The notes below the pieces were generated by a model. The model was not told the origin of the DNA. It did no database searches and saw only the letters and a list, made by a program, of their open reading frames with translations. Below are positions 54 to 44,935 of a stretch of DNA of 64,000 bases, piece after piece (the stretch's first letter is position 1; each line of letters opens with the position of its first letter). The DNA is from a virus, in the IMG/VR virus record IMGVR_UViG_3300045988_059940, positions 32,001 through 96,000 of that record; one strand, written 5' to 3'. The translations under genes and the position numbers were made by a program.

Positions 54-722
54 TTATTTCTAATTTGTTTCTACTACTCTTACATCTGATGTTTTAAGTA
101 GTTCGTTTGTATTTATAATATCATACTTATAAACAGTTACTTTTTTAAAGTCTAATGTAAATAACCGTTTAAAGAATGACTTTTTATTCTTATATTGTTT
201 CTTTTTATAGATATACAAATATTGAGTATTATTTACTTTCAATCTTATATTTACTGTATCTTTACCTATTGTATATTCTACTGTTGTAAGGTCGTTATAG
301 TTTATAGTATCTTTATATACACTATCTTTAATAATAGTTTTTACTATATCCTACCCCCTTACCCCCTTAGACTTATTAACGTATATTTCCTATGTCTAAG
401 TTGCAGCAGTATTTATGTGACTAGGTTTTATCTTATTTTTTCTGGCTACACTATCTAGTTTGTGTAATAGCGAATCGTTCTAGTCCTTCAATCTTGTCAT
501 ATCTAATTTTAGAACATTGTTAGCCTACTAGGAGCCATTAATTATCCCCTAGTAAGCCTCAATGTTGTTTTGAGCCATTTCTAGCCCTTCTGAGAGCTTT
601 TTATTCTATTTGTATAGAAATATACTACTAGCGACAGATAATGCCACCAGCGCAATTAAAATGGCCTTAGAGATGATTTTACGATTTCGCTTTATCCAGC
701 TTATTATCGTTAGAATCTCCAT
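54..722 (-). CDS. membrane-anchored coiled-coil protein, spanin/Rz-like candidate (222 codons, 9 in-frame TAG)
   Basis: ATG at 722-720 and TAA at 56-54. Walking frame 0 gives no TAA/TGA. TAG occurs at 60, 351, 390, 396, 480, 525, 528, 549 and 606. The N-terminal hydrophobic segment ILIALVALSVASSIFLY is followed by a charged helix-like region. It overlaps the holin-like gene, as lysis genes often do. Confidence 0.55.
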
Positions 723-2565: not shown

Positions 2566-3600
2566 TTAAACAAGCTTATTTAATTCAGTCTCAACTAAAC
2601 CAAGTTGACCCTTCAAACCATAAATTTCAAGACACTGGCTCGTCTTACGAACGATGTCGTCAGCAGCACGATAGCTGTTTTCAAACTCTAACGTAAGAGA
2701 ATCGTACTTAGCGCCTTTCTGTACCTCCATGTCAGGACGTATAATAGGCCAAGTACCTTCACCACGGTTTAGGATACCCTCATAACCTTGTGCCCAATAT
2801 TCACGGTCACGTACGTGCTTCCAGTTACATTCACCGTCATGACCTTCTGTCTTCTTAATTACAACACCGTCGATGAAGTATTTGTTCTTTGAAGCAAAAC
2901 CAGATGCTGATGGGTCTGTAAAGTATACATTAGCAACAAAGCGAACCTTGTTTGCAGGACTGATTGACATTACGTTGTCGTCATCATCATAAGGAAGCGC
3001 TTCAATCTTCAATGTCGTTTTGTCAGTAGCTCCATCAACAATAGCAGAAGCAATTACACGTGCACGCTTGTATTGTTTGTTGATAAGATTAGCAAGCTTC
3101 TCTGGCAAGTTCTTTTCATTATCACCATCTTTGGTTACATACTCATAAGACTCAGTCCATTTGCGGAAACGATGAGGCATGTCCTTAAACGTCAAGCGTA
3201 CTATAATACGCTTACCAGCCATACCAAGCTTCGTCTTCATTTGCGTAGACATATTCTTGAATTTAATTTCAACAGTATCTTCTGTTTCGTCTTTATATTC
3301 CTTTTTATGTAAACCGCGAACGTCAGCTTTCTTAATCTCGTTAGACCACTTGATAACTGGTTCATAAGTCGTAGCACCAGTGCTATAATCAACCTTTGGT
3401 TGACGCTTATTTTGAATAAGACCAACCTTTACTACATTACCAGTAATTGTTGCACCGACAGTGCCGTCTTCACAGTTCATGAAGATAAACTTACCTGCGT
3501 CAGCAACAGCAGTGTTTGTAGCAGTATCAGCAGGTTTTGCAGCAGCAATAGCGCCAGTGGCGAGATTGCTAATCATTACATTATTTACGTATGTATTCAT
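2566..3600 (-). CDS. abundant-looking structural protein (344 aa, no TAG)
   Basis: An uninterrupted ORF with a TAA stop and its own strong terminator. It lies in the head/tail-adaptor part of the late module. Its function is not recognisable by eye. Confidence 0.6.
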   Translation of the reverse strand: MNTYVNNVMISNLATGAIAAAKPADTATNTAVADAGKFIFMNCEDGTVGATITGNVVKVGLIQNKRQPKVDYSTGATTYEPVIKWSNEIKKADVRGLHKKEYKDETEDTVEIKFKNMSTQMKTKLGMAGKRIIVRLTFKDMPHRFRKWTESYEYVTKDGDNEKNLPEKLANLINKQYKRARVIASAIVDGATDKTTLKIEALPYDDDDNVMSISPANKVRFVANVYFTDPSASGFASKNKYFIDGVVIKKTEGHDGECNWKHVRDREYWAQGYEGILNRGEGTWPIIRPDMEVQKGAKYDSLTLEFENSYRAADDIVRKTSQCLEIYGLKGQLGLVETELNKLV

Positions 3601-9313: not shown

Positions 9314-9362
9314 AATTATTAATTAATAATTAAATTATTTGTTTCGCTGTTTAATCAGCGTA

Positions 9363-9998
9363 TTACCATTCAGTATAATCATAAGGTCGCCTTAGAGTTG
9401 TAGGGACACCTTTTTTGGTTTTACCATACAACTAATCACGCATACCTTTCAATACTTTTTTCATATCTGGAACACCTTTTGTTTTGGCGTTCTTTGGATT
9501 TAGCTTCCATTTACTCATTGCAGCATCTATGCTCTTCATGTTAGCCATACGATTACTATATGTGTCATATGAAGATTCATAGTATCCTGCGTCTTTTAGT
9601 ATTCTGGCTGCTTTTCTTGGGTCTGTTTCGTCTAGTACATTATTGTACTTTTTATCCATTAAGAGATTGTCGCTAATGTAATAGTTAGCAAAGTCTTGTT
9701 CGTTTTTAAATTGTTTGTATTGATTAATATTTGGACTAACAATACCTCCATAATTGTGTAGATTTCTAGCAATAGGAGATGTACCATTTAATGACTCCAA
9801 TGCAGTTTGACGCATAGCATTATCTAGCCAATCTAGTTTTCCGACTTCTTGCAATCTGTCATATAATGCTGGTGCCATCTTTTCAACATATTCATCGTAC
9901 TAGTCTTTGCCTCCTGCATAATTACGAATATCCCAATAGTTTTCACCATTCTTCCAACGGTCAAATCTTTCTTGAAAAGACTTAGTATTATATCTCAT
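9363..9998 (-). CDS. head-module hypothetical protein (TAG at 9432 and 9900)
   Basis: ATG at 9998 abuts the portal TGA at 10001-10003. Frame 0 was walked down to the TAA at 9363. Confidence 0.55.
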
Positions 9999-15317: not shown

Positions 15318-16547
15318 TTATGCTACTACTGTACCATTGGCGTCAACCCATTTGTTATCTTTACCAAACCAGAGCGGTTTATTCTTTACTGTATCAAAGA
15401 ACATTTGACCAAGTACTGGATTTGCTGGTCTAGTTGCAGCAGGAGTTTGTGGCAATACATCTTGTACTTTCCTACCATCAGCCAAATACATATCTCCGTT
15501 CACCCTAATATCTAATGCATTACTTCTTACTGTATCAGACTATCCATTACCTATTGTAAATAACGAAGACTATTTAGCTTGATTTGCATCTTTTACAATA
15601 GTACTATAAGAACCATCCCCAACTGTATTTGAAAACGCGCCGAATACAGCTGCATAATCTACATTAGATTTATTATTATTTCCAGTTATAAACTAAGCGT
15701 TTTTGTAAGACTTATTCTTTGCACCAGATATAAAAGACCCATTGGCGTTTGCGCCTATGTAGTTAGAAAATCCAAATGTTGCTGAATATTTTGTTTTTTC
15801 TGCAATATTCTATGTACCAACCGCAATACTATTTGTATAGTTTCCACGATTCTCACCAGCAAGTATTGAACATTTACCATCATTGCTAGTTGTAAACATA
15901 GAAATAATGCCAGGTTTTGTTAATCCGCATTCTATTGCATTTGTGATTATGACCTTATTGTCGGAATTAACATCAAATATTACTTTCTTTAATGTAGATT
16001 TTGAAAATTTTTCACCTTCTAGTTTTAATCCGTTGGCGTATTTTCCAACAATCATATATACATCGTAAGACTTTAAATATGTATATGACGAACTTGTACT
16101 ATCATACGCAGTGACCGCGATGTCACCATTTACAGACTTTATTTTAAATATATATGCATTTGCTATTATTAAATTCTGTTCACCTTTATTTAGAATGCCG
16201 AATCCGCAAAGTATAGATGTATTGCCCAAAGATGCAATATTATATCCAGAAATAATATCCGATGGACCAGAATATACATTGTGGTTTGACTTTATTGTAG
16301 TTAGTGTTATTGCTGTATTATTTATATTTTCTGTCTTATTGTCTGCGGAATAAGATGGCGATATAACACTATCTACTAATGAATTAGATGTTCCACCAAC
16401 AATATTTAAAGATTTTACTTCATTTGCATCCAATATTGTACCTGGTTCAAAACCATTTTTTATATCACCCAAAACTATCTATGGTGTAACGGCATACTTT
16501 AATCCTCCACCCTAAATAGTTGTACCATTTAATTTTACTGTTTCCAT
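15318..16547 (-). CDS. tail fibre protein (409 aa, 6 in-frame TAG)
   Basis: ATG at 16547 and TAA at 15318. Frame 0 was walked, with TAG at 16512, 16479, 15810, 15693, 15570 and 15540. The composition is Gly/Asn/Ser-rich and beta-like. The C-terminus GQMFFDTVKNKPLWFGKDNKWVDANG resembles fibre tip repeats. Confidence 0.55.
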
Positions 16548-19500
16548 TAATTATAATAGTTTTTAGTTGTATTATTATCTAATAGAGTTTTTGGATTTTC
16601 ATGTATAGCATTTGCACCATAGTTCATAAATACTTCTCCATACTCTAATTTATTATGTCCAGCTGAAACATATCTATTTGGTGTAAATACCTATGCAAAC
16701 TTAACCTTTCCTGGACTTACAAATAGTGTACTACCACAGAAAGCACCTCTTATATAAGATAATTGATTAAATCCGTAGAATACGCCACTTATCTATACTG
16801 GTTGAGATGAGTTGCCCGTAACATAATGACAATATGCAAATGCAAACCCTATGTCTCCTAATACAGACTTATTTATATCCTATATAGCAGAAAGATTAGT
16901 TCCTAGATACAATGTTATACCATTAAATGTATTTCTAAGAGTTGTTATATTAGGACAGTATTTAAACAAGCTCTTTGGTATTGTGTAATTTGTAGTACCG
17001 TCTAATAAAGTATATGTAGACAAATATGTACAATTATAAAACATTCCAGTTATATTTTTTGTATAACCATTAAATGGTAACAATAATACTGGTGGAATAC
17101 GTCCGAATAATCCGCCTCTATCTTGAACATTATAACCACATCCACAACCGTAAAATATATTCTATATCTCAGCATCACCATTACAATATCTAAATAAATC
17201 TGGTGCGCAACAATAGTTTAGTGTACCACTTAATATAGTATTATCTCTTGTGATTACAGAAGATACTAAGTTCTCATCGTGTTCATCATCTCCATCATGT
17301 ACCCCAGTCTTCTTATGTACACCATCATAACTCCACATTATTGTGTTGTTTACAGTATCAGGTTGAGCTTTCTAGAATTTACCATTTATAAATAATATGT
17401 TGTATGGTTGATATGTATGGTTTTGAATTTCCTCTGGACTGTTATTAACATAAGGTTGTATATAATTGTACTAAAATAGATTATTAGTAAAGTTTATCTT
17501 TGAGTTTGGTTTCTTTGTAGTAATTGTAGTTTTAAAATATACAACACCTTCTGGGTTCTATATTACCGTACCATCTTTACTCCACTCTATTGTTTCGCCT
17601 GTCTATTTATATTTAAATATATCACCGTTCTTATGTGTTATTGTCACAGTTGTTGTTGAAACACCATTTGATGTAGATGTTTCTGATTCAATTTTACCAT
17701 CAACTATTCCATAATATGTCTATGTAACATCCGTTTCACCGTGATATAATAACTTATACGGTATATGACTTTTTATCCGCTCTTGATATGAAGAATTTGC
17801 AAACAAATAAGATACCTAATTTAATGAAGTACAATTTGCAAACGAGTTCCCAGTAAGCTTATAATCAAACTTTAAATCTGAGAACAAACCATATACATCG
17901 GTTAACTATGGATTGTTTATAAATAAATTACCAGGTAACTCTGGAATAGATATTAGATTTTCTGCTGTTGAATTACTGAACAAATATCGTACAACACTTA
18001 ACTTTTTACAATCTTTAAATATATTTTCTGGAAAACCTCCAACAATACGCTTTTTATAGCCATATCCAAACATTGTTATATTGTTGATAGTGCTTCTATT
18101 ATTAAAATGCGTAAGGTTGGTAAAACCTTCAAATAACTGATTTGTAATTGGGAAATCAACAGATGTTGTACCTTTGCTTAAGCATGCAAATGCAGATATA
18201 ACTGATACATGTTGTGGATGCTTGAACATATTCTTAAAAGATATGGTTCCTTTTCCATAACTTGAAATAAAAGCATCAGATACAGAATTTACTGGATTTT
18301 CAAAAGTTATTGTATCATAATCTATAAAACATGCGTTAAAGCAACTAGTATAATTCTTTGTTAATAAATTCTTGGTAAACATTGTAAGATTTCCTCTATC
18401 AGCACCGCCAGTTTTTGATAATTCTAAATCTCCATTGGCGTATTTATTATCAAAGTCTACAAATCCTGCATTGTTTACATCTTCAACGATGATTGAATTT
18501 TTATGATTAAAAAATCCAGTAAATGAATTTATTTTATAATTCTTAGATGAATGTCTAAACATAAATCTATCGAACATGCCGTGGAATCCATTTGCCCAAC
18601 AATCTATATTTGTCAAACTATCTATAAGTGGACTAAACAGACCGTTGTCTTTCGTAACATTGTTTTCATCGTGTTCTGGTGAGAATATTCTAATGTTTTT
18701 ATAACATCCCCATAGAATATCACGAATATCCCAAACGCCAGTTGCGAAATGATACATATAACGATTTGGACTATTATCCACAGTAGCTGTACGTTCAAAG
18801 TTTACCTTTGACTAAAAGAACATACCACGTAAACTCTTCATCTGTCCTAAGTTTGATAATGCGTAGTATACATCAAATACTGTACATGCGGTTTCTCTAA
18901 ACATATAATCACACACAGCAGTTCCAAATGTTATATTAGTTACACCATCACCACTTTGCCACGGCATCTTCCAATTCAATGGAGGCTGTTTACCTTTACT
19001 ATCTGGATTAGTTATTTCGTATGGCATAAGAACTCTACCGTCTGTGTCTACAACAGATTTGTTCATAAATTTAACAGTAGATACATCTGAACCATGTAGT
19101 GAGAATTTATTCAGCAGATAAAACGTTCTTGTTGATGCAATTACTATATTACCATATAAACGCTTTAAATTGGCACAGCCTTGGAATTGCTAAGTTAAAG
19201 TAATAGGTTTATCTTTATCATTAGCAAACTGTATGTATTCTACTGTACTATTTTGGCTAATATTGAATGTTTGTAAACCTGTAAACTTACTAAGATTTAA
19301 TATATCTTTGCTAGATGGACTTCCTTTTATTGCACTACCGTTCAAGTATAAGTTTTCAACGTTAGCTTCATTACAGTTGTCGATAGTAACATAATTCAAC
19401 TTAGAATTTGAAGATAAATCTATACTGGTAAGTGCTCGCAAATCAGATAGTGTAACATAATTTGTATTAGAATCACCAATCAATGCTTGGTTGTTTATTA

Positions 19501-21037
19501 TTCTTACACTATCTAACCTAGGACAGTTTTCAATAGCAATTTGTGTTAAGTTTACATTATTTGCTATTGTTAAATTAGTAAGATTTTTACAGTTTATAAT
19601 CTATACCTTTTGTAAGTTATTATAACCAGACAAGTCCAAAGATGTATAACCATCGCAATCTTCTATATAAACCGTCTATAAATTGTTACATCCTGTCAAG
19701 TCAATCTGTTTTAGATATGGTTGATGTCTCAAATCCAACTCATTTATGTTAGACCTTTGTATCTATAATGTTTTCAAAGGTACGTTGGTCGGTATGTATA
19801 TGTTTGTAATACATTTACTACCAGATATATTTATATCAGTAAGTTTAGTAAACTTTGTAAATGCGTGTGGAGTTTTGCTGTTTTGTTCTATATCTAAAAC
19901 AAATGTTTTCGTGGGGTCTAAGCACTGTGTATTAGAAAAGTCCATAGTTCTAATCTAAGACTGTATGTCTTTTCTAAATACATCTAATTTAAAGTCTGGG
20001 CTAAAATGTTTGTTGCCACTCAAATCTATTTCATATAATGCTGGGAATCCTAATGCATCTATTGTATTTTGTGCTTCTGTTGCAGCTAATATAGATACCT
20101 ACATACTTGATAACTTATTGTTAGCATTACCAAGCTTTATGAAGTTATTTGAATTAGTAATGTTCCAGTTATATGGACCACCATATTTAATGTTGCCAAC
20201 GTTTACAAACGTTTCTTTATTGTCCTATAAGAAATAGAAAGCGGTAACTGTATCGCCAATACTTATCTTTGATATTATTGGACAGTTTGTTGTTACTGGG
20301 AATACCTGTTGATTTGTACCCATTATACTGTTACCAGTAGATACATCTGCATTTGATTTAAATGTAATAGATTGCTGTTGCTTTGCAGTATCGCGCCACT
20401 TAAATAAGCTATCTAAGAATATAGTATGCTTCTTCAACCAATTTCTACTATGTGCAATCTTACGACCATGTAGCTTAGTCATATCTTTTGTATTACTAAT
20501 TTGGTCGTTAGTAAATTGTAATAGATATTTTAGCTTATAGTCATAATTAAATATCAACGAACCACAATCTGATGTTTGCTTATCAAAGTATTCATCAATG
20601 AAATAATTCGTAAATGTATCATATCCTTTTGACTTAGCTAAATCTTCTGTAAACTTTCTAAAATCATACCAATATTTTGTATATAGTGAATTTACATCTT
20701 CTCCAAATACTGCCCTACTAAACGATGTGTCTAATGACAACCACAGTTTGTTTGTATTTGCAGACACTGTTTTTCTAGATATAGCTTCGTCGAAATTAAA
20801 TGTTTCTGATACATACTACAATCCATTTTGTGCATTTGCAACAGTACCCTTGTTTGTTAGATACTTAATCCACACATCTGGTGTAATAGACAACTAACCT
20901 TGGTTATCACCGCTCATAGAACAGTCTAGGTCATAAAAGTCAGTAAGGTATTTGTTTCCATCCCAAGACCTATATGTTGAGTTCTTTCCAAAGTTATCAA
21001 CTAATCCAAAGAAGTTTGCAATGATGAAGTATTTCAT
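16535..21037 (-). CDS. very large tail/receptor-binding protein with leucine-rich-repeat (BspA-like) regions (1500 aa, 21 in-frame TAG)
   Basis: Seven track ORFs are all in frame 2. Every gap was walked codon by codon and contains TAG only. For example, 17084-17905 has 8 TAG and no TAA/TGA across 274 codons. ATG at 21037 and TAA at 16535. LRR-like periodicity is visible in 18.0-19.7 kb (..NLT.I.I.NC..L..V.., SIDLSSNSKLNYVTIDNC). Confidence 0.65.
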
Positions 21038-21115
21038 TGCACTTTCTACATTGAATCCTAGGTTCTCAGCACTTACTGCATTGGAATCAATTTCAATATC
21101 TTGTTTCTAACCAGT

Positions 21116-24100
21116 CTTATAATAGTTATTAAAGTTATCAACTGAGTATAAATCATAAGACCCTGCAATATAGTTTTTAGAAATCGTACCAATAGAGTCA
21201 CTACTATAACAGCGTTCTATTGGGAAGCGCATTATGTTCTTTACGAACTGTACAAATCCTGGGTAATCGCTAACCTATTTATTTGATGGGTATCTAACAT
21301 CAAACCTACGATTTAAGATTTCTCTATCACTTTGCCAGAAATCACCATTTGAAGTATTTATACCTTCTGGAAGTGTATCTTTTACATTTGCAAAATCACT
21401 TAGAGATACAGTATCTTTAATTTCTATCCAGTTTGCATTTTGTGTATCTTCCTCTACGTATTTTACTTTATCTTTATAGAATGGGAATGTAGTTACCTCA
21501 AATACATTATTACCTTCATCTACGATTTTATTTACTTTCTTAAATCCTAAGTTTCTATATGCGTTACGACCTAGGTTAAATGAATATATTCCAAGTGGCG
21601 TAGTAGATACTTTATTTTGCGCATCTGTGTAGAATTTCATTATTAAGAATACAGGGAAACCTTCTACTGTATGTTTAAGTGTAGCTGTCTTTTGCTGCTT
21701 CTTAACATAATCAGACTCATATACATTGTCTACTGCTTTTTTATCGAATGGGAAATATTCAGATGTACCAATTCTACCAAGTGCACTATTTATAAACGAA
21801 CCAATAGAAGCATTACTAGCATGAGAGCTGTCTACAACGTCAGCTTTAAGTGTATATGTCTGTTCAGGAAACCATGTAGATTTTGGTACAAATGCTGTTG
21901 TGTCAGGTACAGTTATGTTTACGTTCTTAACTGCGTCTGCTAGCGTTGAAGTACCTTGTAATTCAATTGTGACACCGTTAATTGTTTTAATACTAGTGTC
22001 AATACCTGTCTTATCTTGTTTGTTTATTCCAACTGGGTCCCAGTATTGTATAACTTTATTTGTAGTAGCAGTTAGAGTTGTAGATGATGCTGATTGCTGT
22101 TTTACAAACTAATCAAATGTCCAAGATGAGTCGTTACTAACATCAATCAATACAATAGGTATGCCAATAAATGCAGCCTATTCTTGTATGCTTTTACTAT
22201 TTAATCTACCATTAGAATCTAGTAAGAAGTCTACATTATAGCCAGTATGCTCGTTGTATAGGTATGATTTAATACTACCATCAGATTTTCTTTCACAGAA
22301 GTTCTTTTTTAATTCTACCTATATTCTTGCATAGTTTGGAGTTCCATTTACATAATCAGTTGACACAATATTATTTATACTATCAACCATTATGTCGAAC
22401 TCATTAAGTGCATATGTATATATATTCATGTTATATATATCTACATCACACTTATTATATATTACAGACTTTCCATTCTTAATATATTGTCTAGCTCCTA
22501 AATATATAGTATCACCAAATACAATTGGAGTTGTTAGATTTCTAATAGCTGACAATACTCCGTCCAAATACACCTTGACTACATATGATACACTATCCAC
22601 ATATCCAGTTGCTATTTGTGTACGTGTCGTCTACTTCTTACACGTAATTGTAATATCATTTTCAGTACTATCTTCAAGCTATATTACATTTTCATTATTA
22701 ATATAAATGTTATGTACATCAATGGATATACCATTAATCATAGCTCCAAGATTCTAGTCTGCAACAGAAGTATTACCAGAGAATAATATTGTTCTCTCAT
22801 CATCTGGGTGATAGTCTGCTTTATAATGTATATGAATTGTAAATTCGTCACCGCTTGACGATATGATGTCATTAAACTTATATTTTCTAGATTCTAGTGA
22901 AATGTCATCAAATTTGGCATATGCACCATTACTAATCCTATAATACTATACAGCAGAATCTAAAATAGATACTCTTGACCTAATATTACTTTCCATTGTT
23001 CGCAACACAGAACCTATTTGGAATTGTGATTTATAGTTTGTATTTGTAAATTCAAACGTATCATCACCAACGTTCTATGCTCTGGCATGCAATGAGAATA
23101 TTCTGTTGTTTATAATATTAGATGTGTCTGATAAATATGTAACTGATGATTTTATAAACTTAATGTAATATGTCGTAGTTGCTGTCTTCTGTCCAGAAGT
23201 AACGGTCACCTTCAACGGTACTGTCTTATTTGCAACAGTCCACGGTTTATTATTTACAGATATATAATCACTAACCTACCTACCAAATACACCGTCAGCG
23301 TCTTGTCTAACAAGATTTCCATCTATTTCTATATTATACTTATAAGACGTGTACTGACTTACATATGCTGTAAATACAACATTAACAGAACCATCCATAC
23401 TAACCTCTGTTGGCTGTCCTTGTACTTTGCTCATTACAGCAGACGATATTAGAATTTCTGATGACACCACTGTCATTGTAGATTTAATCGTCTTCTTTAC
23501 AGATTGTGTTGTTTTGTTCTGTAAAGTACATTCTACAACATAACTATCTATGTAATCTTCTGTCTATCCTATCAAGTCACTAAGTACAATAGATTTTAAG
23601 AACTAGTCGGTTGTAGCAATTACTAAGTCATACTCTTTTGTAATTGTATGTAATCTACCTATGAGCTTAATTGTCAACTTGTAGTTACCGACAACACCTA
23701 CACTATAATACAACTTTAAAAAAGAAGTATTTAAGCTAGTTAGTGTACTTTGTATATCTTCACATGACATTTCTATGTTGTTGTCAATAATAACACCAGA
23801 CCACTGTGCAGAGCCGTATATACCCTTTTCGTCATCTTCATAAGATGCAGATATATTCAGCTTTCCAGTATGATTTGATAATTGACTTACAACAGTATCA
23901 TATGGTACAAACAGTATAGGATTTGACGCATTAGCTACTGAACTATATATCTATGTACTACCTATACGAGCTATTACATTCCACCCTTTATTGTATTTTA
24001 CACTTAAATCTGACAGCTTTATCTGTAAACCTCCCTAGTCCATTATTATTTGTGAACCAGTTGGTTTATCATTTACAGTAATAGTTGTATTTACTTCTGT

Positions 24101-24346
24101 ATCACCAGGTGTTGCTCCTCCACCTCCACTACCAGAGCCTCCACCTCCATGTAGTGCGAGCCATGATATATTTCCTTGTGCGACAGTTAAATCATCTTTT
24201 AATCTTTCCATCGCAGTATCAACAGAGATTATATTCTCTCCGTCTTTTAAGAACTTAGGGTTTGTTGTACCGATACCTTTTGCATCATTACTTGCTACAA
24301 TATCCCAAGTTCTTTTTGATTCATTATATTTCTTTATGTTATTCAT
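21116..24346 (-). CDS. large tail fibre/spike protein (1076 aa, 14 in-frame TAG)
   Basis: ATG at 24346. Frame 2 was walked across all gaps down to the TAA at 21116-21118. The N-terminus is MNNIKKYNESKRTWD... followed by a GGGGSGSGGGG linker. Confidence 0.6.
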
Positions 24347-24357
24347 TGTAAGAAAGA

Positions 24358-27300
24358 TTATAAGGTGATTGTATATTTGTCCTATGTGGTTATATTATAT
24401 GCAGATAAATCTTGCGGTAATGATTCTTTCAATGTCATTGCTACTGCTGATAGACTATCTAATTGTTTATTCATGTCATACTTTGCAGTATTCTTATCTT
24501 CATTCACCGTCCAAACACCTTTTATTTGTTTAGCTGTAATATCTATTTTACTATCTGACATTTCATACACTACATACATGGGGTAATGTTGCTTAACATT
24601 TTCCTTCGGTGTAACTTCACTAGTCTTAGCTTTAAAATATGCTAACAACCAAGGTATTTGATAATCTGGCCCAGACGGCTGTTCTTTGTTTGAAACTAAC
24701 TTCCAACCAGTTGCCTATGACATAACATATGTTGGTGCATTGATTTTATCTACTATTTCAAATCTTGCAAATTGTAACCAATCATTATTTATATCTGATG
24801 CCTTTGTTACCTAAATTACTGGTTTTCTAGAAACACCTTCTGTTACTTCGCCCATAAACTCAACGGCTGTATTTTGCCTGTTATTCTATATATAATCAGC
24901 TGGTGCATCATATATTGGTTTACTTATACTATAAGTATGTTTGTGACCACCAAATACTAATCGTATACCATACTTCTTAAACAATCTAGAAAACCTATAT
25001 GTACCATTGTTATTTAGTGTATTTAAGTGTGAACCACTACGTCCTTTTACACCATTCATGAAGTCCCAGGTTACGATTGTAAATGGCATTTCATGCATAT
25101 AACAAAGTGTATTTTTACAGTCAGTTGGATTCTCTACACCATAGTATATCTATAAATCTTTCTTTAACCAATCTTCAATTTTAGCGTTCATTGTTTTAGC
25201 AAAGGTAGCATCGCCAGAGTTTGTACTAATGTTCCAATCATCTGTATACACTTTACTAGTAGCTACCGCATTTTCTGAATTAATAGATATGAAATGGAAT
25301 TTCCCATAATTAAACGAATATGTAGAATACATTAAACATTTCTTCCCATTCCATGTTAATTCATATTCATTGTTTGGGTCTAGCTCAAATGTAAAGTATT
25401 TCAATACATTTACATGGTTATATTTAGATGTAACATCATCACCGTCTGTTAGTTGTGTAGCATTATGTCCACACAAGTCATTGTTACCAACAGTAAACAT
25501 TTCAGTTTTATCACCTAAGAACTCGTCTAGTGCTTGATAGTAATCTAACCATTCATTCTCCCTATTACCGTTCTAAGTAATATCTCCTGTATTTATCAAG
25601 AAGTCTGCGTCTTGTTGGTCTTGTGCTAACATCTTGGCCGATTTACGCCAAGCCTGGTAATCTATCCAACTGAACCCTTGTTGGTCAGTTTCTTGTACGA
25701 ATTTAAAAGTTGTTACCTCTGAGTTGTCTTTGACCGTTAACGTCTTAATTGTACTATAATATGACTCGTCAAAGTCTCTTCCTATGCGATATTCATATAC
25801 GCCAGCTTCAAACTATTCACTTAATACTACCTTATGAGTAGTAACCATTGTACCGCGTACCGTCTTCCAGCGTAATCTTTCATAATGGTCTATGAACTTA
25901 TTTATAACAGCTGAGTTAGAAGAATCATCTCTTGTTATAGAATATTGTTTCTTCCATTCAGTTTGTCCTTTTTTACGATATTCTATAAACTCATCGTAAT
26001 ATCCGACAGATACCCAATTGAAGCATCTAGAAGCCTTTTTGTGATTTGCTGTATCGGAAGTGGCTTGAATACCAAATGTACACCTTATGCAGTTTGGTTT
26101 ATTCTTATTGAACTCTGTTTTATCTGTAAAGAAGTTTTTACCCTCCCATGATGCTTTTGGTGTATATTTCTCTTTCATCTCATCTAGATAGTAATACTGT
26201 ATACTATTACCTATCTTTGTAGTTTGACGTTTAAGATTTACATATATCCATAAGCTTGTAGACTTTCTAGCACCATATGCTTTATTACCCTATTTGGCTG
26301 GTTCTAACATAAACCTACGTATAAATAGCGCATCATTCCAAGAATCTCCTGGCTCTAATAAGAATGTAGTTCCACCTTCACTTAACGAGCCTACACCAAA
26401 TCCACAGCTATCTATATATCCTTTATTTACCTTTTGTTTATTCCAAGGTGAAGCTAACTCTCCAACAGCATATAGATTACCATTGGAATCGTACACCCAG
26501 TTATCTGTTGGACTACCAACACACAAATAGAAGCTAGAACAAGTTTGGCTAAACTTTATTAGTTCACCATTTGAGAACCACTCTTGGTCATATGTATTAA
26601 CATCAATGAATTGAGAGTTATAATCATTACATTTAGCTCCTCGTATTAAATATGTAGAGCCTGCTTTTATTACACCACTTAGCGGTAATGTGTGCCACTT
26701 GTATCCGTTTGTACCTCCACCATATGGTGTACCATCTGTATAGAGTAGATATATACCATTTAAGTTAATATCTTCTGTTGAACCATTTGCAAGCTCTACA
26801 AAGTTGTGTGAACACATACAGTCTTCTGAACCTTGTCCACCGCAATATACTTCATTTATACAGAGTAGATGATTTATAAATACACCCCAAGACCCATCTG
26901 GGTTACCTATACCAGTTGGAGTTTGTATATTCTTATGTATCATAAACTCGCCAGACTTACTTACTTCTACTTTGTATGTAGATTCACCGTCTGTAAAGTT
27001 TAGATACCTTAGTTTCGTAGCATATAAATCTTCTACACTAATTCCACCACCAGAACCTCCTGAGCCACCATCTGTTGTGCCTACAAGATTGAACTTCCCA
27101 TCTTTATATAGAACTAAACGTTTTTTATCTGTATAGAATAGTATTTCACCGTCTATTAGGTTTTGTCTATTCTTATTGAAATTAGCTACTGTATCCATCT
27201 TTATAGATACATGATTTACAGTAGGTTCTATTCCTTCTGTATTAGGTTTATCTTTAACTATACCTGGAATATCTTTTGATTCCTTTGGTTTAAGAGGGTC

Positions 27301-28705: not shown

Positions 28706-28731
28706 GTATTATTTTATATTAATTTATATAG

Positions 28732-28819
28732 ACGCCCCAGTAGGAGTCGAACCTACCCTGTCACCTTCAGAAGATACGCGGTTTTAGAGACCGCCAGTGC
28801 CACCGTACACCATAGGGCG
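28732..28819 (-). tRNA. amber suppressor tRNA, anticodon CUA, class II (long variable arm), 88 nt
   Basis: Manual fold: acceptor CGCCCUA/UGGGGCG; anticodon stem GCGGU/ACCGC with loop C-U-CUA-A-A; variable arm of about 20 nt with a 5-bp stem; T arm GUAGG-UUCGACU-CCUAC. No CCA is encoded. The base after the acceptor stem is U. Confidence 0.8.
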
Positions 28820-31588: not shown

Positions 31589-32055
31589 ATGACATAGAAT
31601 TAAATGCAATATTATACTACGCTGATTTTCTATCTTTGAAGACTTTAAATAAGCCAATTACTCATACGTGCAAGTACTTTTTTATCCACGGTACGCCATT
31701 AAATGCTACGTATATTGCTACTGGTACACTACAATATGAAGAAGATAATCCATTCTTCTTACAGGCTAGAAAAGAATACGAAACAATTAAAGATAAGTTT
31801 GGTTTAGAGGGTGTAGAAAGCTTCTTAGAAGATATATCTTATCTACGTGCAAGAGGAGCTGTTGATGCTAAACAGATGCTTAGATGTATACATCAATACA
31901 GCACTAGGATAGAAAGAAAGTAGGCCTTTACTAGCTATTACAAGTGGTTAGATGAACAGAAATATACACACATTGTACTCGACGATGATGGAAAAGAAGT
32001 AGAAAAAGAATGCTCAAAATACGTGCTACACTTTGAAGCAGGCTGCAACAGATGA
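31585..32055 (+). CDS. DUF4065/Panacea-like domain protein, extended through an in-frame TAG at 31921
   Basis: The N-terminus ELNAILYYADFLSLKTLNKPITHTCKYFFIHGTPL resembles the SocA/Panacea pattern (KL.YYAd...l...g.pi....y.....GP). Reading through the TAG gives 43 more sensible codons, AFTSYYKWLDEQKY..., down to the TGA at 32053. Confidence 0.4.
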
Positions 32056-39034: not shown

Positions 39035-39042
39035 AAGCATTA

Positions 39043-39225
39043 CCTAATCCAGCCACACCACAGTGACAGTCCTAAGCCTGTTAAATGGAGAAGGGGTAAT
39101 TGTAAACAACTCTAAATTGAATATGGGTAATGAGCCTACGCCCCGTTTAGATAGTTTACAGCTCACCTAACGAGCAGCTCACTCAAAGTATATGTGGAAT
39201 ACTGAGAGTAAAAGAGGCGGCCGAT
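39043..39225 (+). repeat. copy 1 of a roughly 180-nt duplicated non-coding element
   Basis: It shares three ordered blocks with 39603-39770: TAATCCAGCCA..., GTCCTAAGCCTG...GGAGAAGGGGTAA, and ...TGTGGAATACTGAGAGTAAAAG. Confidence 0.55.
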
Positions 39226-39349
39226 AACCAAATCCGAGTTTATATATTTAGAAAAGCTTTATCAGCAAAACGAACATTATTGTGCACAATAATGTTTATG
39301 TGTAGTTTAGTCCAACAATATGTTTCTGCTCTGGAAGTTTTTACACATT

Positions 39350-39422
39350 TCTCCCTTAGCTCAATCTAGTCAGAGCATCATAGGTATTATGAAAGATTCT
39401 GGTGCAAATCCAGAAGGGAGAA
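39350..39422 (+). ncRNA. tRNA-like element (73 nt) with a non-canonical anticodon loop
   Basis: The acceptor is UCUCCCU/AGGGAGA, the D arm is GCUC/GAGC and the T arm is UCUGG-UGCAAAU-CCAGA. The anticodon arm UCAUA-GGUAU-UAUGA has only a 5-nt loop, or a 7-nt loop AGGUAUU lacking U33. Confidence 0.45.
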
Positions 39423-39463
39423 CGAACGACGTTTTTAAATTTTGCATAAGAAAAAGGATTATG

Positions 39464-39595
39464 TTTCGCTAAGTAACCTGTGAAGGCGAAAGAAATAGGA
39501 ATTGATACGAAATTTCGCTGAGTAATCTGCAAAGATGAAAAGATTACGGAATTTGGAAAGCGTAAATCTGTGAAGACAAGCGCTTTTGTTTTTAC
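39464..39595 (+). ncRNA. three tandem hairpins with a conserved loop sequence plus a terminator-like end (candidate small RNA)
   Basis: The three hairpins are TTTCGC-TAAGTAACCTGTGAAG-GCGAAA, TTTCGCTGAGTAATCTGCAAAG... and AAGCG-TAAATCTGTGAAGACA-AGCGCTTTTGTTTTT. Confidence 0.45.
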
Positions 39596-39602
39596 GTTTA
39601 TC

Positions 39603-39770
39603 TTAATCTAGCCAGTCCCAATGTCGGTCCTAAGCCCGAAATGCGTTCATTACGTATAATAGAGAAGGGGGTAAACGCACACCAAAAATGGCGTAATTAA
39701 CCAAGGTGTGTCTCTCAGTCCAGACGTAAGAGAGTAATCCGCTCATAGTGGGAATATGAGTGAAAAAATA
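39603..39770 (+). repeat. copy 2 of the duplicated non-coding element
   Basis: The blocks TAATCTAGCCA..., GTCCTAAGCCCG...AGAGAAGGGGGTAA and ...AGTGGGAATATGAGTGAAAAAA occur in the same order as in copy 1. Confidence 0.55.
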
Positions 39771-39908
39771 CAATTAAGTAAGTAGTTGTAGAAAGAATTA
39801 AAATAAGTGCTTACTCACAAAACCGAAAATAATGTGTTTGGGTTTATCGTAGCGCGCAAAGAAGCGGATTTCAGAACACATAATCGTCATAGGTATTATG
39901 ACAATCTT

Positions 39909-40001
39909 TCTCTCTTAGTTTAAATAATAAAACATCTATAAGATAGGAAATATTGAAACACCTATTAATAGAAGATATTGGCGTAAATCCAATAGAGAGA
40001 A
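39909..40001 (+). ncRNA. tRNA-like element with an expanded anticodon region (93 nt)
   Basis: The acceptor is UCUCUCU/AGAGAGA, the D arm is GUUU/AAAC and the T arm is AUUGG-CGUAAAU-CCAAU. About 40 nt lie where the 17-nt anticodon arm should be. It is preceded at 39886-39903 by the hairpin GTCATAGGTATTATGAC, the same hairpin that forms the anticodon arm of 39350-39422. Confidence 0.4.
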
Positions 40002-40510
40002 CTATTTTATTCAAATATAGCAGTAACTATTATACCAAAAACTTAATAACTTTCCAAGTCATTGAGGACACCAGTTTCTTACACCCAGTAAGTTTTAGGT
40101 GTAAAATGCAATTCAAGACACTAATCACGTCTAGAATCCATCTTTGTTTGAATTGATTACTCAAACGGAGAAATACCCGTAAAACGGAGCTCAACTACAA
40201 AATACGCTCGTAGTTGCTGAGTATAGGTAGAATTGTGTTTAGTAATTGAGTACGAGGATACGAAGTTACGTGACACTCTGGAAAGACAGAGAGTATGCTT
40301 AATTGCGCAAGTAAGTATACTAGCACTATCGTATAACATATAGATTACGCTCCGTGCTGTCGGAGAAATGTAGGCTTATTACCTACTAGTGCACTAATTG
40401 TTGTCAGCCCCTGTGTGAATAATAGTAACACTTATAGGAACTGTCTGGTGTGGTCACGAAAGTGGCAATTTAATCATAGCTTAATTAAATCCTGCTATGG
40501 GGTAAATATT

Positions 40511-40966
40511 ATGGCAATTAAATGTTTTAAACATGAAAACAATTCTAAGGCTTACATTGACAGTAAACACATCTGCTATGTAAGAGAATGGTCAGACGGA
40601 GAAACAGAAATAGCCACAGTAGATGGAGGTTCAACCTATGTGAAACAAAGTGTAGAGTCTGTTGTAAGTTGGTGGAAGAAACAACAAGAAACGGACGTAA
40701 AAGAGCCTAAGTTCAAAGAGGTTGACGATGTTTATACAATTAGCTTGGCTAACATAAACAATAGAAGGTATCACGTTGTGGAGGCGCTCAAAGAAGTGCT
40801 TAACTTTCACTTAGATGAAAAAAGAAGTTTAGGTGAAAGCAGCAGACTAACCGTACTTATAACAAGAAACAAAGTAGAAGCTATGGAGGTATGGGCAAAA
40901 CTAAAAGCAAGATTGTTCTGTGTCGGTGTCAATGTAATTCTTGAAATAGATTCAGTAAGAGAATAG
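40511..40966 (+). CDS. protein with a ribosomal protein L7/L12 C-terminal-domain-like region (weaker copy)
   Basis: VYTISLANINNRRYHVVEALKEVLNFHLDEKRSL...NKVEAMEVWAKLKA...VNVILE follows the bL12 CTD pattern. The likely start is MAIKCFKHEN at 40511. The gene ends in TAG, with a TAA 5 codons later. Confidence 0.45.
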   Translation: MAIKCFKHENNSKAYIDSKHICYVREWSDGETEIATVDGGSTYVKQSVESVVSWWKKQQETDVKEPKFKEVDDVYTISLANINNRRYHVVEALKEVLNFHLDEKRSLGESSRLTVLITRNKVEAMEVWAKLKARLFCVGVNVILEIDSVRE

Positions 40967-41155
40967 ACAACAAGATGGTAAAGTTACGGCTCCTAAAAGA
41001 TTGTAAGATTGTTATATCTGACAATACTTTAAAAGTATTTAAAGACAATAATAATTTTACAGTAGAAATGCAAGCAAAAAAATATTGCAATTGCAGAATA
41101 CGATAGTTTTGTTGATATTTTATCTAATCTTCCCGTCGAAAAGAAAACTAGCGAA

Positions 41156-41428
41156 TTGAAAAAACCTGTAAAAGTTTATAAAGTTCGATTGGTACACGTA
41201 CTCGGCGACAGACTTAGAGCAATAAAAGCGGTTAAAGAAATACTTAATCTCTGCTTAGCAGACGCAAAAGATTATTGCAGAATTGAAGAGTCAAACAAAA
41301 CTGAATCAATAGTTGTATGTACAACAACAAATAAAGAAGAGGCCTTGAAAACATGGTCAAAGTTTAAAGAAGAACTAAAAGACACCAACGTTAAAGTAGA
41401 TTTCAATGAGTACACATCAGAACAATAA
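41156..41428 (+). CDS. ribosomal protein L7/L12 C-terminal-domain-like protein
   Basis: YKVRLVHVLGDRLRAIKAVKEILNLCLADAKDYC...NKEEALKTWSKFKEELKDTNVKVDF aligns by eye with E. coli bL12 [34 protein letters not shown]...[22 protein letters not shown]. The start codon is uncertain: TTG at 41156, with no in-frame ATG upstream. Confidence 0.6.
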   Translation: MKKPVKVYKVRLVHVLGDRLRAIKAVKEILNLCLADAKDYCRIEESNKTESIVVCTTTNKEEALKTWSKFKEELKDTNVKVDFNEYTSEQ

Positions 41429-41822
41429 AAAGACAACTGCTCTCACAGAAGCAATGCTGCCCAAATTACGCAAAACGGTCCACATCGAAGGCGAAAAGAA
41501 GCAAAAATCTTTCGCCAAGCATAGGCGCAAATCCTATGTGTATGATGCTGAAAAAGACAAATACGTCAAGGTCTGGCGTAATCCTCCTAAGAAAGATATG
41601 ACCAAAAAAGAGCTCAAAGAGTTCTACGGTCATGGATTCAAAGTGACATTTACTCCTGTTCGAGAAATAGAACTGAAAAAGTTCAACATCACTCTACGCT
41701 TCAACCGTAGCAATCAATTTATTGATTTTACGGGAGTTGAAGACAAAGAGGATATACAAATGGTTTCATCTGTACTCGGACAACCAGTAGGGAAAGTATT
41801 GCAATTCTTCCAAGACATCTAG
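41406..41822 (+). CDS. basic hypothetical protein
   Basis: 138 aa and K/R-rich. It ends in TAG. Confidence 0.5.
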   Translation: MSTHQNNKKTTALTEAMLPKLRKTVHIEGEKKQKSFAKHRRKSYVYDAEKDKYVKVWRNPPKKDMTKKELKEFYGHGFKVTFTPVREIELKKFNITLRFNRSNQFIDFTGVEDKEDIQMVSSVLGQPVGKVLQFFQDI

Positions 41823-41823
41823 T

Positions 41824-42042
41824 ATGAGGTTTCAAAATCAACTCCATCAACCTAGGAAAAAGACTAAAACGGTCGATAAACTAGGTAATCAGAGAAGGCG
41901 TATGTGGTTTAAGTGTGGTAATTCAACCATGCTCTTTACCGAATGTACACCAGAAGCAGCCAAATGCCTAAACCGCTCATTAAAAGAACTGTTACAGGCA
42001 TACGGCTGCAAGTTAGAAGGAACATTTATTGTAACAAAATGA
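41824..42042 (+). CDS. basic hypothetical protein
   Basis: A 72-aa ORF. Confidence 0.4.
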   Translation: MRFQNQLHQPRKKTKTVDKLGNQRRRMWFKCGNSTMLFTECTPEAAKCLNRSLKELLQAYGCKLEGTFIVTK

Positions 42043-42464
42043 ACGAAAGAGTGACTTTGCTCCAAGCTAAACGATTACGTAGGCTTGGATATAATAAACC
42101 ATGTTCAACGTATCATTGCGCAGCAGGCAACCAAATCAAGGTAGACAAACCTATGAATTGGAATGCCGAAAAACGGCAATTTTGGTACGATAACTCGAAT
42201 GAACATCAATGTACCTCTATTCCTAAATGTGATGATGTTATCAATTGGTTAAGAGAGAAATATAAAATTATAGCAACTACATTTGCTTTTAGAAGTATGT
42301 CACCTGATACAGAAACTATACGATATGAAACGCACGCTTCGTGTCGTGAAAAATCTAAGTGTAAACTTATATTTGCAAGAAAAAGGTTCTATAAAGATAT
42401 TTTCGCTGCTAAACGTGGCATCATCACTAAGTGTTTAACTTACATAGAATCATTATCAAAATGA
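42039..42464 (+). CDS. hypothetical protein
   Basis: The likely start is MNERVTLLQAKRL, overlapping the upstream stop as ATGA. Confidence 0.5.
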   Translation: MNERVTLLQAKRLRRLGYNKPCSTYHCAAGNQIKVDKPMNWNAEKRQFWYDNSNEHQCTSIPKCDDVINWLREKYKIIATTFAFRSMSPDTETIRYETHASCREKSKCKLIFARKRFYKDIFAAKRGIITKCLTYIESLSK

Positions 42465-42823
42465 CAAAAGAACTTAGCCCCAAATGGCTCATCATAGCAT
42501 TTATTACAATGCTACTATTGTTGTTTGCCAAAAATGTATTTGGTCAAACAAAGACAACGGTAAAACCAGATACTGTGTTGTGTAAGAATGAATGTATTGT
42601 AAAATATGTTCAGACTGAAACAAAGTCTGGTAAGGTGAAAACCTACGCTGTTTACAAAGACGAAAAGAATGGTATCGAGGAGTTAATTCCTATATCTCAA
42701 ACCGTTCTAGATTACGTAAAACTATGCGGTCAGAATAACTTGAAACCTACATTAGGTATTAAAGTTAAGAATGGCCAAATAGTATCTCTCATTCGGTACA
42801 AGCCTAAATTTGTTAAAAAATGA
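42461..42823 (+). CDS. secreted/membrane hypothetical protein
   Basis: The N-terminus is signal-like: MTKELSPKWLIIAFITMLLLLFAKNVFGQ. Confidence 0.5.
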   Translation: MTKELSPKWLIIAFITMLLLLFAKNVFGQTKTTVKPDTVLCKNECIVKYVQTETKSGKVKTYAVYKDEKNGIEELIPISQTVLDYVKLCGQNNLKPTLGIKVKNGQIVSLIRYKPKFVKK

Positions 42824-43260
42824 AACAAGGCAATGTTGTACGAAGGATAACAACAAATGGTACGCTGGTTGGCGCTTATTACATGGTTCATAAAGCCAAA
42901 GGTAATGAGTTGCTAGCCAGCTCACCAGCTGGCGATAAACCAGTAGTGTTAAATAAGGATGAATTTGTCAAAATCCCAAAATATATCTTACGTGTAAATA
43001 AAACTACATTTAAGAAAGTATTAAATGGTTTAAGAACAATAGAACGAGAACCGTCTAAAAACTGGGAGAAAGTCTATGATGCAAACGGAGATGGTATAAT
43101 CGCGGTTTACAATGTAGAATTAGACCAATATTTATACTTTGAGTATGGTAACGTAACGAAAGTATTACGTACAAACATACTTGGAGAAAATAGATTTGGT
43201 CAATTGAGACAACTTCAACCATTAATCAGAGTTGAACTAAAAACTAGAATTTGGTTATGA
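42820..43260 (+). CDS. hypothetical protein
   Basis: A 146-aa ORF with ATGA coupling to its neighbour. Confidence 0.5.
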   Translation: MKQGNVVRRITTNGTLVGAYYMVHKAKGNELLASSPAGDKPVVLNKDEFVKIPKYILRVNKTTFKKVLNGLRTIEREPSKNWEKVYDANGDGIIAVYNVELDQYLYFEYGNVTKVLRTNILGENRFGQLRQLQPLIRVELKTRIWL

Positions 43261-43907
43261 TAACATTTGAAAGATTCTTAGAACTTTTTTGTAAAAAGGC
43301 TAGAATTAAATACGTATCGTTAGCAAAAACGCGACAACAAATACGATTGAATTTCACCGAATTATGCCACAAAGATATTATCAACGGAGTATACATCAAG
43401 AAATATAAAGTATATTTTGAACGATTGAATGTATTCTATAATATAGGAAATTGTACAGAAGACTTTCCATCAAAAGATGAATATGTGTGTATTTTCGTTG
43501 AAAATAATCCTGAGATAATTATATCTAAAAAAGCAAAAGCATATTGTGTTAACAGTAGTGTAGGATTGTTCAAAAACGCAAAAGCATGCTGTATACGTTG
43601 TGATATACGTTGTTTTGAAAATTCAAAAGTTATTGCATATAAATGTGATAATATCACAATGCACGCTAATACGAAAGGATTATTTAAATGTTGTAGTGAC
43701 ATAACAGCAGAATGTAATGCAACAATTAAACTTCTTGGTCATTGTATGGCGTATGCCACTGGTGATGCGGTTATCACTGCGAGTGAGATGTGTTATGTAG
43801 CTGCAACAGATAATGTGAAAATAACTGCAAAACAATACACTTATGCTCTTATTTATAAAAATGTAACAATTGAAGCAGATGAAACATGTTCAGTTAGAAG
43901 ATTATGA
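43251..43907 (+). CDS. Cys-rich repeat hypothetical protein
   Basis: 218 aa with repeated C..A/N..K..C-type segments. Confidence 0.5.
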   Translation: MVMITFERFLELFCKKARIKYVSLAKTRQQIRLNFTELCHKDIINGVYIKKYKVYFERLNVFYNIGNCTEDFPSKDEYVCIFVENNPEIIISKKAKAYCVNSSVGLFKNAKACCIRCDIRCFENSKVIAYKCDNITMHANTKGLFKCCSDITAECNATIKLLGHCMAYATGDAVITASEMCYVAATDNVKITAKQYTYALIYKNVTIEADETCSVRRL

Positions 43908-44719: not shown

Positions 44720-44935
44720 AAATCAAGAGGGGTGGAATCAATCCATCCCTCTACAAAAGACTTTTAATGTGGCCAAAGACAGTTGCAAGCCTGTAAACAC
44801 AGAGCAAAAAGTCCATTTTACTTATTTAATTCAATTTTAAATGTTTAACGTTATTATCTTTAATAAGCAAACAGAATGCCAGTATTAGCGAATACTTTTG
44901 AAGTATAGTGCTTGTGAAAGTATTATACTTTTTAT

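Follow-up and report, generated by a model that had tools for sequence, protein, structure and literature searches.

Two tandem genes in a 64,000-nucleotide stretch of viral DNA (positions 32,001 to 96,000 of IMG/VR record IMGVR_UViG_3300045988_059940, hereafter the window) encode proteins whose C-terminal domain (CTD) resembles that of ribosomal protein bL12 (L7/L12, RplL). We call their open reading frames ORF1 and ORF2, and we are nearly certain that the C-terminal regions of both are true homologs of the bL12 CTD, with strong evidence for ORF2 and weaker evidence for ORF1. Taken as a whole, the sequence data are best explained, with a probability of about 0.4, by accessory early proteins that would turn a bL12-type surface toward the translational GTPases of the host. 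The original prediction had noticed the resemblance by eye and had proposed that it helps the phage to out-compete the release factor at TAG codons; the resemblance stood up to the analyses below, whereas the proposed tie to TAG codons was not supported by related genomes.

The homology is concluded from Pfam, PDB sequence, library-wide profile, profile-profile and structure prediction evidence taken together. On the Pfam profile PF00542 (Ribosomal_L12; gathering cutoff 25.9 bits), the CTD-bearing frame of ORF2 (41156-41428) scored 24.1 bits (E 4.6e-5), just under the cutoff; P0001, an intact homolog of ORF2, likewise remained below it (25.5 bits), and four relatives encoded by related phages exceeded it (P0010, 32.7 bits; P0011, 40.2 bits; P0012, 26.7 bits; P0017, 38.6 bits). 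The top match of ORF2 among PDB sequences was the L7/L12 protein of T. maritima (E 0.026). A search of 1.84 billion representative proteins with a profile of the phage proteins returned 69 matches at E<=1e-3, and PF00542 was carried by 62 of the 67 that were scanned, the two from the query alignment being left out. Alignment of the phage CTD profile with the bL12 CTD profile by hhalign gave a probability of 97.7% (E 1.4e-12). In the AlphaFold2 (AF2) model of P0001, the CTD is predicted to have the beta-alpha-alpha-beta-alpha-beta order of bL12, with a strand at residues 66-73, helices at 75-90 and 94-102, a strand at 109-117, a helix at 120-133 and a final strand at 140-147; the block means of the predicted local distance difference test (pLDDT) across this CTD were 54-89, and the mean pLDDT of the models was 59-67, so that the folds are to be read as predictions only. 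Foldseek placed L7/L12 at the top for the models of both ORF1 and P0001, and for P0001 the match to 1ctf had a template modelling score (TM) of 0.73 and a root-mean-square deviation of 2.9. Across L7/L12 structures, P0001 showed 20-27% identity and, when normalised on the CTD-only chains 1ctf and 2zjq_5, a TM of 0.69-0.73. The bL12 assignment thus stands after both the profile and the AlphaFold comparison.

The original prediction had described the bL12 pattern as weaker in the first protein, and our searches agree. The C-terminal ~80 aa of ORF1 matched PF00542 at 14.7 bits (E 0.04), well under the cutoff, and the top match among PDB sequences was again a bL12 protein (8rdw_D, E 0.03). The AF2 model of ORF1 (mean pLDDT 67) had L7 1rqu as its best Foldseek match, and the second CTD helix was not formed. 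The CTDs of ORF1 and ORF2 are 32% identical (E 3e-8). More broadly, the ORF1 CTD is 28-34% identical to ORF2-type CTDs, except that of P0001 (25%), and 19-28% identical to canonical bL12 CTDs. Since it lies somewhat closer to the ORF2-type CTDs, and since the first gene elsewhere consists of the N-terminal domain alone, the ORF1 CTD may derive from the ORF2 type, although the margin in identity is small. ORF1 itself, with homologs P0002-P0006 at 80-100% identity, is an intact gene whose CTD is a more degenerate paralog of the ORF2 CTD. Suppression of the TAG stop of ORF1 late in infection would add five residues (QTTRW, as found in the database protein P0002) and lead to a stop at TAA 40979-40981, two bases past the ATG of ORF2 at 40975-40977, and TAG suppression could therefore alter translational coupling between the two genes.

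The gene model of ORF2 differed from the one first proposed, in which 41156-41428 was a bL12-like protein without an ATG start. The homology of this frame held, but its status as a separate gene did not. Searching with a conceptual fusion of the frames 40975-41106 and 41156-41428 retrieved P0001, a protein of 150 aa with 95% identity over its full length that is encoded without interruption on contigs L001 and L002. These contigs are 96% identical and carry six A residues at a run where the window has seven, the only difference that matters in the DNA alignment. ORF2 hence starts at ATG 40975 and is split in the window strain after codon 35, with the upstream frame ending at TAG 41104-41106. 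The TTG-start frame 41156-41428 (90 aa) lies inside the 3' segment and is an artefact rather than a gene of its own, because the extra A splits a gene begun at ATG 40975; the start codon is therefore not unusual. Contigs L004 and L005 (ENA ERZ27262741, Logan ERR589362) also have the A7 run, but with 100% identity to the window across 5.7-6.5 kb they may not be independent of it. A programmed frameshift was considered and rejected: a -1 slip on A_AAA_AAA would enter the wrong frame, and no such run is found in the ORF2-like genes of L008, L009 and L012, which makes a conserved programmed event unlikely and a simple insertion the more likely explanation. The extra A probably either arose recently as an inactivating insertion or reflects an error of assembly, and the break is possibly leaky by low-level transcriptional slippage.

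Neither protein contains the dimerisation and bL10-binding domain of bL12, as the original prediction had stated: PF16320 gave no match in either at E<=10, and AF2 predicted the N-terminal parts of both as beta-strands followed by one helix. According to the models, both proteins have two domains, a small beta-rich FlbD-like N-domain and the bL12 CTD. On the Pfam FlbD profile PF06289 (gathering cutoff 24.7 bits), the N-domain of ORF1 scored 19.1-19.3 bits (E ~0.001), under the cutoff, and the homologs that consist of the N-domain only (P0015, P0016 and P0020) gave no match to this profile. In structure, the N-domain matched a 64-aa phage protein annotated as "Flagellar and Swarming motility protein" (TM 0.62, probability 1.00) and also gp27 of phage N4, and fold searches of PDB and BFVD gave no confident assignment beyond such FlbD-like small phage proteins.

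This architecture bears on where the proteins might act. A peptide of a phage bL12-domain protein has been detected in ribosome fractions (Mizuno et al., 2019; PMC6375957), which would be in line with the proteins entering the host ribosome and replacing, or adding to, the bL12 of the stalk, as proposed for other viral ribosomal proteins. However, the bL12 N-terminal domain and the hinge, which anchor bL12 to bL10, are lacking in ORF1 and ORF2, and a tagged viral bL12 was not usable to purify ribosomes (PMC6375957). With the N-terminal domain tested and absent, neither protein is a ribosomal stalk protein or can sit on bL10, and we regard entry into the ribosome as scarcely credible.

The suggested action on host translational GTPases is consistent with the residues that the CTDs have kept. 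Positions in helices alpha4 and alpha5 of bL12 reportedly contact EF-Tu, EF-G, IF2 and RF3 (Kothe et al., 2004; Diaconu et al., 2005; Helgstrand et al., 2007); our literature search on these contact residues returned nothing relevant. At the positions corresponding to E. coli K65, V66, I69, K70, R73, L80, E82 and K84, which we take to be the factor-contact positions, ORF2 has R, L, I, K, K, L, D and K. Across the ORF2 family, whose members share 43-48% identity overall, K/R65, I/V69, K/R70, K/R73, L78, L80, D/E82, A83 and K84 are kept, position 66 is L except in P0010 (Q) and position 85 is D except in P0012 (A). The set is only partly kept in ORF1, which has R, Y, V, E, K, L, E and R at the eight positions.

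Based on these observations, we suggest the following mechanism. An RNA of the RAGATH-12 class directly upstream and the two tandem paralogous genes form a small accessory module of the early/replication block of the phage, and the products of ORF1 and ORF2 would be dispensable host-takeover factors, made early. The proteins would present the bL12-type alpha4/alpha5 surface off the ribosome, where it may bind EF-Tu, EF-G, IF2 and RF3, and the bound GTPases would be either titrated or tethered to the partner of the N-domain. Binding of GTPases by the ORF1 and ORF2 CTDs is a tentative proposal, with the odds somewhat against it. If it is true, the CTD would provide a simple viral handle on host translation.

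Several observations weigh against this proposal. The bL12 CTD fold is common to ClpS, which is unrelated to GTPases, and the helices that carry the conserved residues also make up its structural core; their conservation is therefore no proof of factor binding. ORF1 carries K70E, A83K and K84R in addition to lacking the second helix in its model. The module is dispensable, since ORF2 is broken in the window and absent in L006, and the CTD is missing from the first genes of L003 and L007-L011. Neither family was matched by tblastn in 50,697 GenBank phage records. Finally, the ratio of non-synonymous to synonymous divergence (pN/pS) against diverged relatives was 0.3-0.6 for both genes (0.34-0.55 for ORF1), above the values of 0.02-0.2 for most neighbours; the two are therefore real genes, under weaker constraint than those around them.

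Some of these points would fit a CTD that is a compact protein-binding fold without a role in translation, either as a ClpS-like adaptor or as an anti-defence decoy against bacterial conflict proteins that contain repeats of the bL12 CTD, in some cases as fusions with TIR domains. Structures of ClpS, the N-degron adaptor of ClpAP, are of the same fold class and match the model as well as L7/L12 does (TM 0.75-0.77, normalised on ClpS). The main matches of the phage profile are bacterial proteins with tandem PF00542 domains, including fusions to TIR, kinase, leucine-rich repeat (LRR) and EF-Tu domain 2/3 modules, which points to a wide non-ribosomal use of the domain. In addition, the fast evolution, the variation in presence and the location in an early block of ORFans are features often seen for anti-defence genes. 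On the other hand, the identity to ClpS is 7-16% as compared to 20-27% for L7/L12, no ClpS profile (PF02617) was matched at E<=10, the ORF2 family keeps residues specific to the factor-binding surface of bL12, and no target defence system is known in this case. We consider a purely adaptor or decoy function unlikely, while granting it more weight than any other alternative.

The RAGATH-12 RNA leads to a different alternative. In the window, the RNA matched Rfam RF03149 at 89 bits (E 4.6e-17; gathering score 75 bits) and ends 6 nt ahead of the start codon of ORF1. It was also found in nine related loci at 82.7-104.5 bits (L001 9449-9530, L002 4584-4665, L003 4024-4102, L006 2652-2733, L007 5913-5994, L009 4719-4800, L010 3111-3192, L012 2394-2475 and L013 67-148), and in 10 of the 10 loci, the window included, it ends 5-6 nt before the start codon of an ORF1-type gene, whether or not the CTD is present. 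The mean column identity of the alignment was 93%, with changes on both sides of the hairpins, and the conservation reaches 20 nt upstream of the Rfam model. The fixed position directly before the first gene gives this orphan motif a defined gene partner; no mention of RAGATH-12 was found in the literature searched. Two other roles for the RNA were tried and rejected. The conserved blocks are single-copy within the window, which speaks against a repeated promoter, and the by-eye likeness to the sarcin-ricin loop of 23S rRNA (UAGUA...AGGA.C...GGAGUG), compared with the E. coli sequence, gave a local alignment score of 11 where the best score elsewhere in the window was 24.

In the relatives, the order of RAGATH-12, first gene, ORF2-type gene and a conserved gene of ~136 aa is constant, and the content varies. 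The first gene encodes the N-domain only (58-69 aa) in the Bohxovirus contig L003 and in L007-L011, a type to which the stand-alone proteins P0015, P0016 and P0020 (59-60 aa) also belong. In P0008 (123 aa) and P0009 (81 aa) its CTD is truncated, and a full CTD occurs in the window lineage only. ORF2 is intact in L001, L002 and L008-L012, frameshifted in the window and absent in the close relative L006. In IMG/VR scans for relatives, no ORF2-type locus and one N-domain-only locus of the ORF1 type were found. Synonymous divergence (pS) between the window and L001 was 0.01-0.05 in ORF1-ORF2 (region 40388-41430), as compared to 0.18-0.30 in three of the four downstream genes checked and 0.10 in the fourth (41430-43271); a pS so far below that of most genes just downstream suggests a recent recombinational exchange of the module between lineages.

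Given this pattern, the core of the locus could instead be the RAGATH-12 RNA and the FlbD-like N-domain protein, as an RNA-protein pair or an autoregulated leader, with the CTD being optional and decaying in several lineages and ORF2 being a pseudogene here. That the RNA abuts the first gene in every locus when the CTD is found on only some of these genes would favour such a core, as would the truncated CTDs of P0008 and P0009 and the frameshift of ORF2 at an A-run that is no conserved slip site. In contrast, ORF2-type genes with high-scoring CTDs persist in several diverged lineages (43-48% identity) with a pN/pS of 0.3-0.6, and the N-domain had no significant match to any RNA-binding fold in the PDB and BFVD searches. 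We find this explanation improbable, and somewhat more so than the adaptor or decoy function.

The setting of the genes is informative for the proposed link to TAG recoding. The window has 34.8% G+C, and the minus-strand genes from position 1 to ~28,000 form long reading frames only when TAG is read through (for example 16547-24394, with 2615 codons and 36 in-frame TAGs). A late protein of 509 aa shares 82% identity with its counterparts in the crAss-like phages cr272_1 and Bohxovirus, where it is the major head protein; on account of this match and the genome layout, the window is from a crAss-like phage (Crassvirales, Bohxovirus-related) with TAG-recoded late genes. The plus-strand block from ~29 kb on uses the standard code and encodes ThyX, a DnaB-type helicase, an AAA_24 protein, a sigma-70-type factor and a metallophosphatase. 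Both bL12-domain genes sit inside this early/replication block, among ORFans: the 10 proteins that flank them had no Pfam match, and the sole PHROG match was to a family of unknown function.

The original prediction had proposed, as a speculative link, that bL12 mimics could bias factor recruitment at TAG, favouring the complex of EF-Tu and suppressor tRNA over termination; the mimics would then work against RF1 and RF3 as part of a recoding toolkit. TAG is indeed recoded in the late genes of this phage, which also has a tRNA with the anticodon CUA, the two genes lie in a standard-code block that would be expressed first, and ORF2 keeps the factor-contact residues. However, bL12 recruits all translational GTPases, RF3 included, and no selectivity for EF-Tu is therefore to be expected. 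Moreover, Bohxovirus PV686213 is itself TAG-recoded (reading through TAG increases the ORF coverage of its minus strand from 23.5 to 44.1 kb), but a 58-aa N-domain protein is all that it encodes at the syntenic position, and tblastn gave no match to either family in this phage. L006 has no ORF2, and the gene is broken in the window strain, where decoding of TAG is still required for the late genes. Conversely, bL12 CTD proteins are carried by N4-like phages and by the standard-code crAss-like phage cr126_1, in which no in-frame stops were present in the eight of eight annotated late genes checked and the PF00542 domain (46.4 bits) is part of a 308-aa protein adjoining the primase. These genomes speak against the recoding link, which we now consider highly unlikely, and the bL12-domain finding leaves unexplained how the phage wins at TAG codons. 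A related idea combines all parts of the module: the RAGATH-12 leader and the FlbD-like N-domain would form a particle that displays bL12 CTDs as an off-ribosome imitation of part of the stalk, capturing EF-Tu, EF-G or RF3 early and helping to ready the cell for TAG-decoding late translation. Since the presence of the CTD is variable and it is absent from a TAG-recoded relative, a general role in recoding is disfavoured, and we rate such a particle as very unlikely. An accessory early protein with a bL12-type surface toward host translational GTPases remains the reading that we prefer, and the features on which it is based are collected in Table 1.

Table 1. Positions in the window of the RNA, the two bL12-domain genes and further features named in the text.
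Feature	Position	Strand	Basis or remark
RAGATH-12 RNA	40403..40504	+	Rfam RF03149 match 40423-40504 and invariant 20-nt extension 40403-40422
ORF1, 151 aa, ATG start, TAG stop	40511..40966	+	FlbD-like N-domain, linker and bL12-CTD-like domain
ORF1 FlbD-like beta-rich N-domain (putative), aa 1-~60	40511-40690	+	Sub-threshold PF06289 match, structure match
ORF1 degenerate bL12-CTD-like domain, aa ~72-149	40724-40957	+	PF00542, PDB sequence match, AF2
ORF2 5' segment, 35 codons from ATG, most of the beta-rich N-part	40975..41079	+	Codon-for-codon alignment with P0001
A7 homopolymer, one-base insertion splitting ORF2	41076..41082	+	A7 versus A6 in L001/L002
ORF2 3' segment, +1 frame, TAA 41426-41428	41081..41428	+	bL12-CTD-like domain at ~41171-41410
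Conserved gene, 138 aa	41406..41822	+	Overlaps the ORF2 3' end; located behind the module in all relatives
tRNA, anticodon CUA	28731-28819	-	Suppressor tRNA, 89 nt

The conserved 138-aa gene behind the module had no Pfam or PHROG match, is syntenic in L001, L002, L003, L006 and L008-L012, and showed a pN/pS of 0.09-0.21. The suppressor tRNA(CUA) of the window measures 89 nt and has a long extra arm; the Rfam tRNA model does not detect it, and it was matched best by the tRNA-Sec model at 42.9 bits, under the cutoff of that model. L001 has instead an ordinary 74-nt tRNA(CUA) at 252-325 (minus strand), in flanking DNA that is ~95% identical to the window. The two tRNAs have acceptor, D-arm and T-arm sequence in common and differ in their anticodon stems, so that TAG may be read as different amino acids in these close relatives.

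The region upstream of RAGATH-12 (39040-40400, plus strand) spans ~1.4 kb without any ORF of at least 70 aa and looks like an RNA-gene island. Matches to a twister-P1-like ribozyme were observed on the plus strand at 39041-39098, 39600-39672 and 44761-44810 of the window and at L001 8625-8682 and 14090-14139, L006 1674-1731 and 6940-6989, L009 4041-4098 and 9048-9097, and L012 6312-6362. With 32-48 bits (E 2e-8 to 2e-3) they are under the gathering score of 67.2 bits, and they are syntenic in several relatives, one set being located in the ORF-poor region and another ~125-175 nt upstream of a tRNA-Leu(UAA). At the corresponding place, the Bohxovirus contig L003 has a RAGATH-15 RNA (3201-3490, 226 bits) followed by a tRNA-like element (3488-3560), and L001 has a tRNA-like match (9339-9417, 35.6 bits) immediately before RAGATH-12. 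The segment 39994-40129 of the window is 86-89% conserved in L001, L002 and L006 and had no Rfam match.

Compared with cellular bL12, the phage CTDs share the fold of PF00542, with 1ctf, 2zjq_5 and 1dd3 at 23-27% identity, and the alpha4/alpha5 motif of ORF2 (RAIKAVKE...L.L.DAKD) aligns with the corresponding 20 residues of bL12. They differ in that a beta-rich N-domain takes the place of the dimerisation domain and hinge, in that the genes lie in an early block and not in an rplJL operon, and in derived features, namely an N in place of G77 and, as judged by eye, a Trp within the last helix. The N-domain, for its part, resembles the small flagellar proteins FlbD/SwrD, but ORF1 has no flagellar context around it. 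The best library-wide matches of the phage profile outside the phage family were bacterial multi-repeat PF00542 proteins such as WP_346660302.1 of Nannocystis pusilla (593 aa) and MBC8507280.1 of an Anaerolineales metagenome-assembled genome (538 aa), which also represent a non-ribosomal use of the bL12 CTD; unlike the phage proteins with one copy each, they are large and cellular with 2-6 tandem repeats. Among such proteins from bacteria including Chloroflexota and Nannocystis (P0007, P0013, P0018, P0019 and others), there are fusions to TIR, protein kinase, LRR, pentapeptide or EF-Tu domain 2/3 modules, and several are labelled plainly as "ribosomal protein L7/L12" at NCBI. The TIR fusions suggest that the bL12 CTD is used in conflict systems.

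The closest known systems are other phage-encoded bL12-domain proteins, in which the domain stands alone or lies within larger proteins, the EF-G/EF-Tu contact residues are kept and homologs without the domain exist; such domains were acquired repeatedly (Mizuno et al., 2019; PMC6375957). Examples are found in Ralstonia phage RSB3, Dinoroseobacter phage DFL12phi1, Salmonella phage FSL SP-076, the "rIIB-like" proteins of N4-like Erwinia phages and QOR59567.1 of cr126_1, and huge phages also carry the domain; no link between crAss-like phages and L12 was found in the literature searched. In these phages, as here, the domain is alone or embedded in an unrelated protein, homologs lack it and the genomic contexts differ, which implies repeated acquisition. 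By sequence, ORF1 and ORF2 fit this group, as bL12 domains in a bona fide phage genome (PMC6375957), although tblastn detected no relationship between them and the known examples. In conclusion, what is new here is the FlbD-like partner, the tandem paralogs, the RAGATH-12 RNA directly upstream and the natural intact, broken and absent variants, all in a TAG-recoding Suoliviridae-like phage. The module thereby adds a compact and experimentally tractable example of ~150 aa, with one N-domain and one CTD, from an abundant group of gut phages, and near-identical genomes with ORF2 intact, frameshifted or deleted, together with first genes reduced to the N-domain, provide its natural controls.

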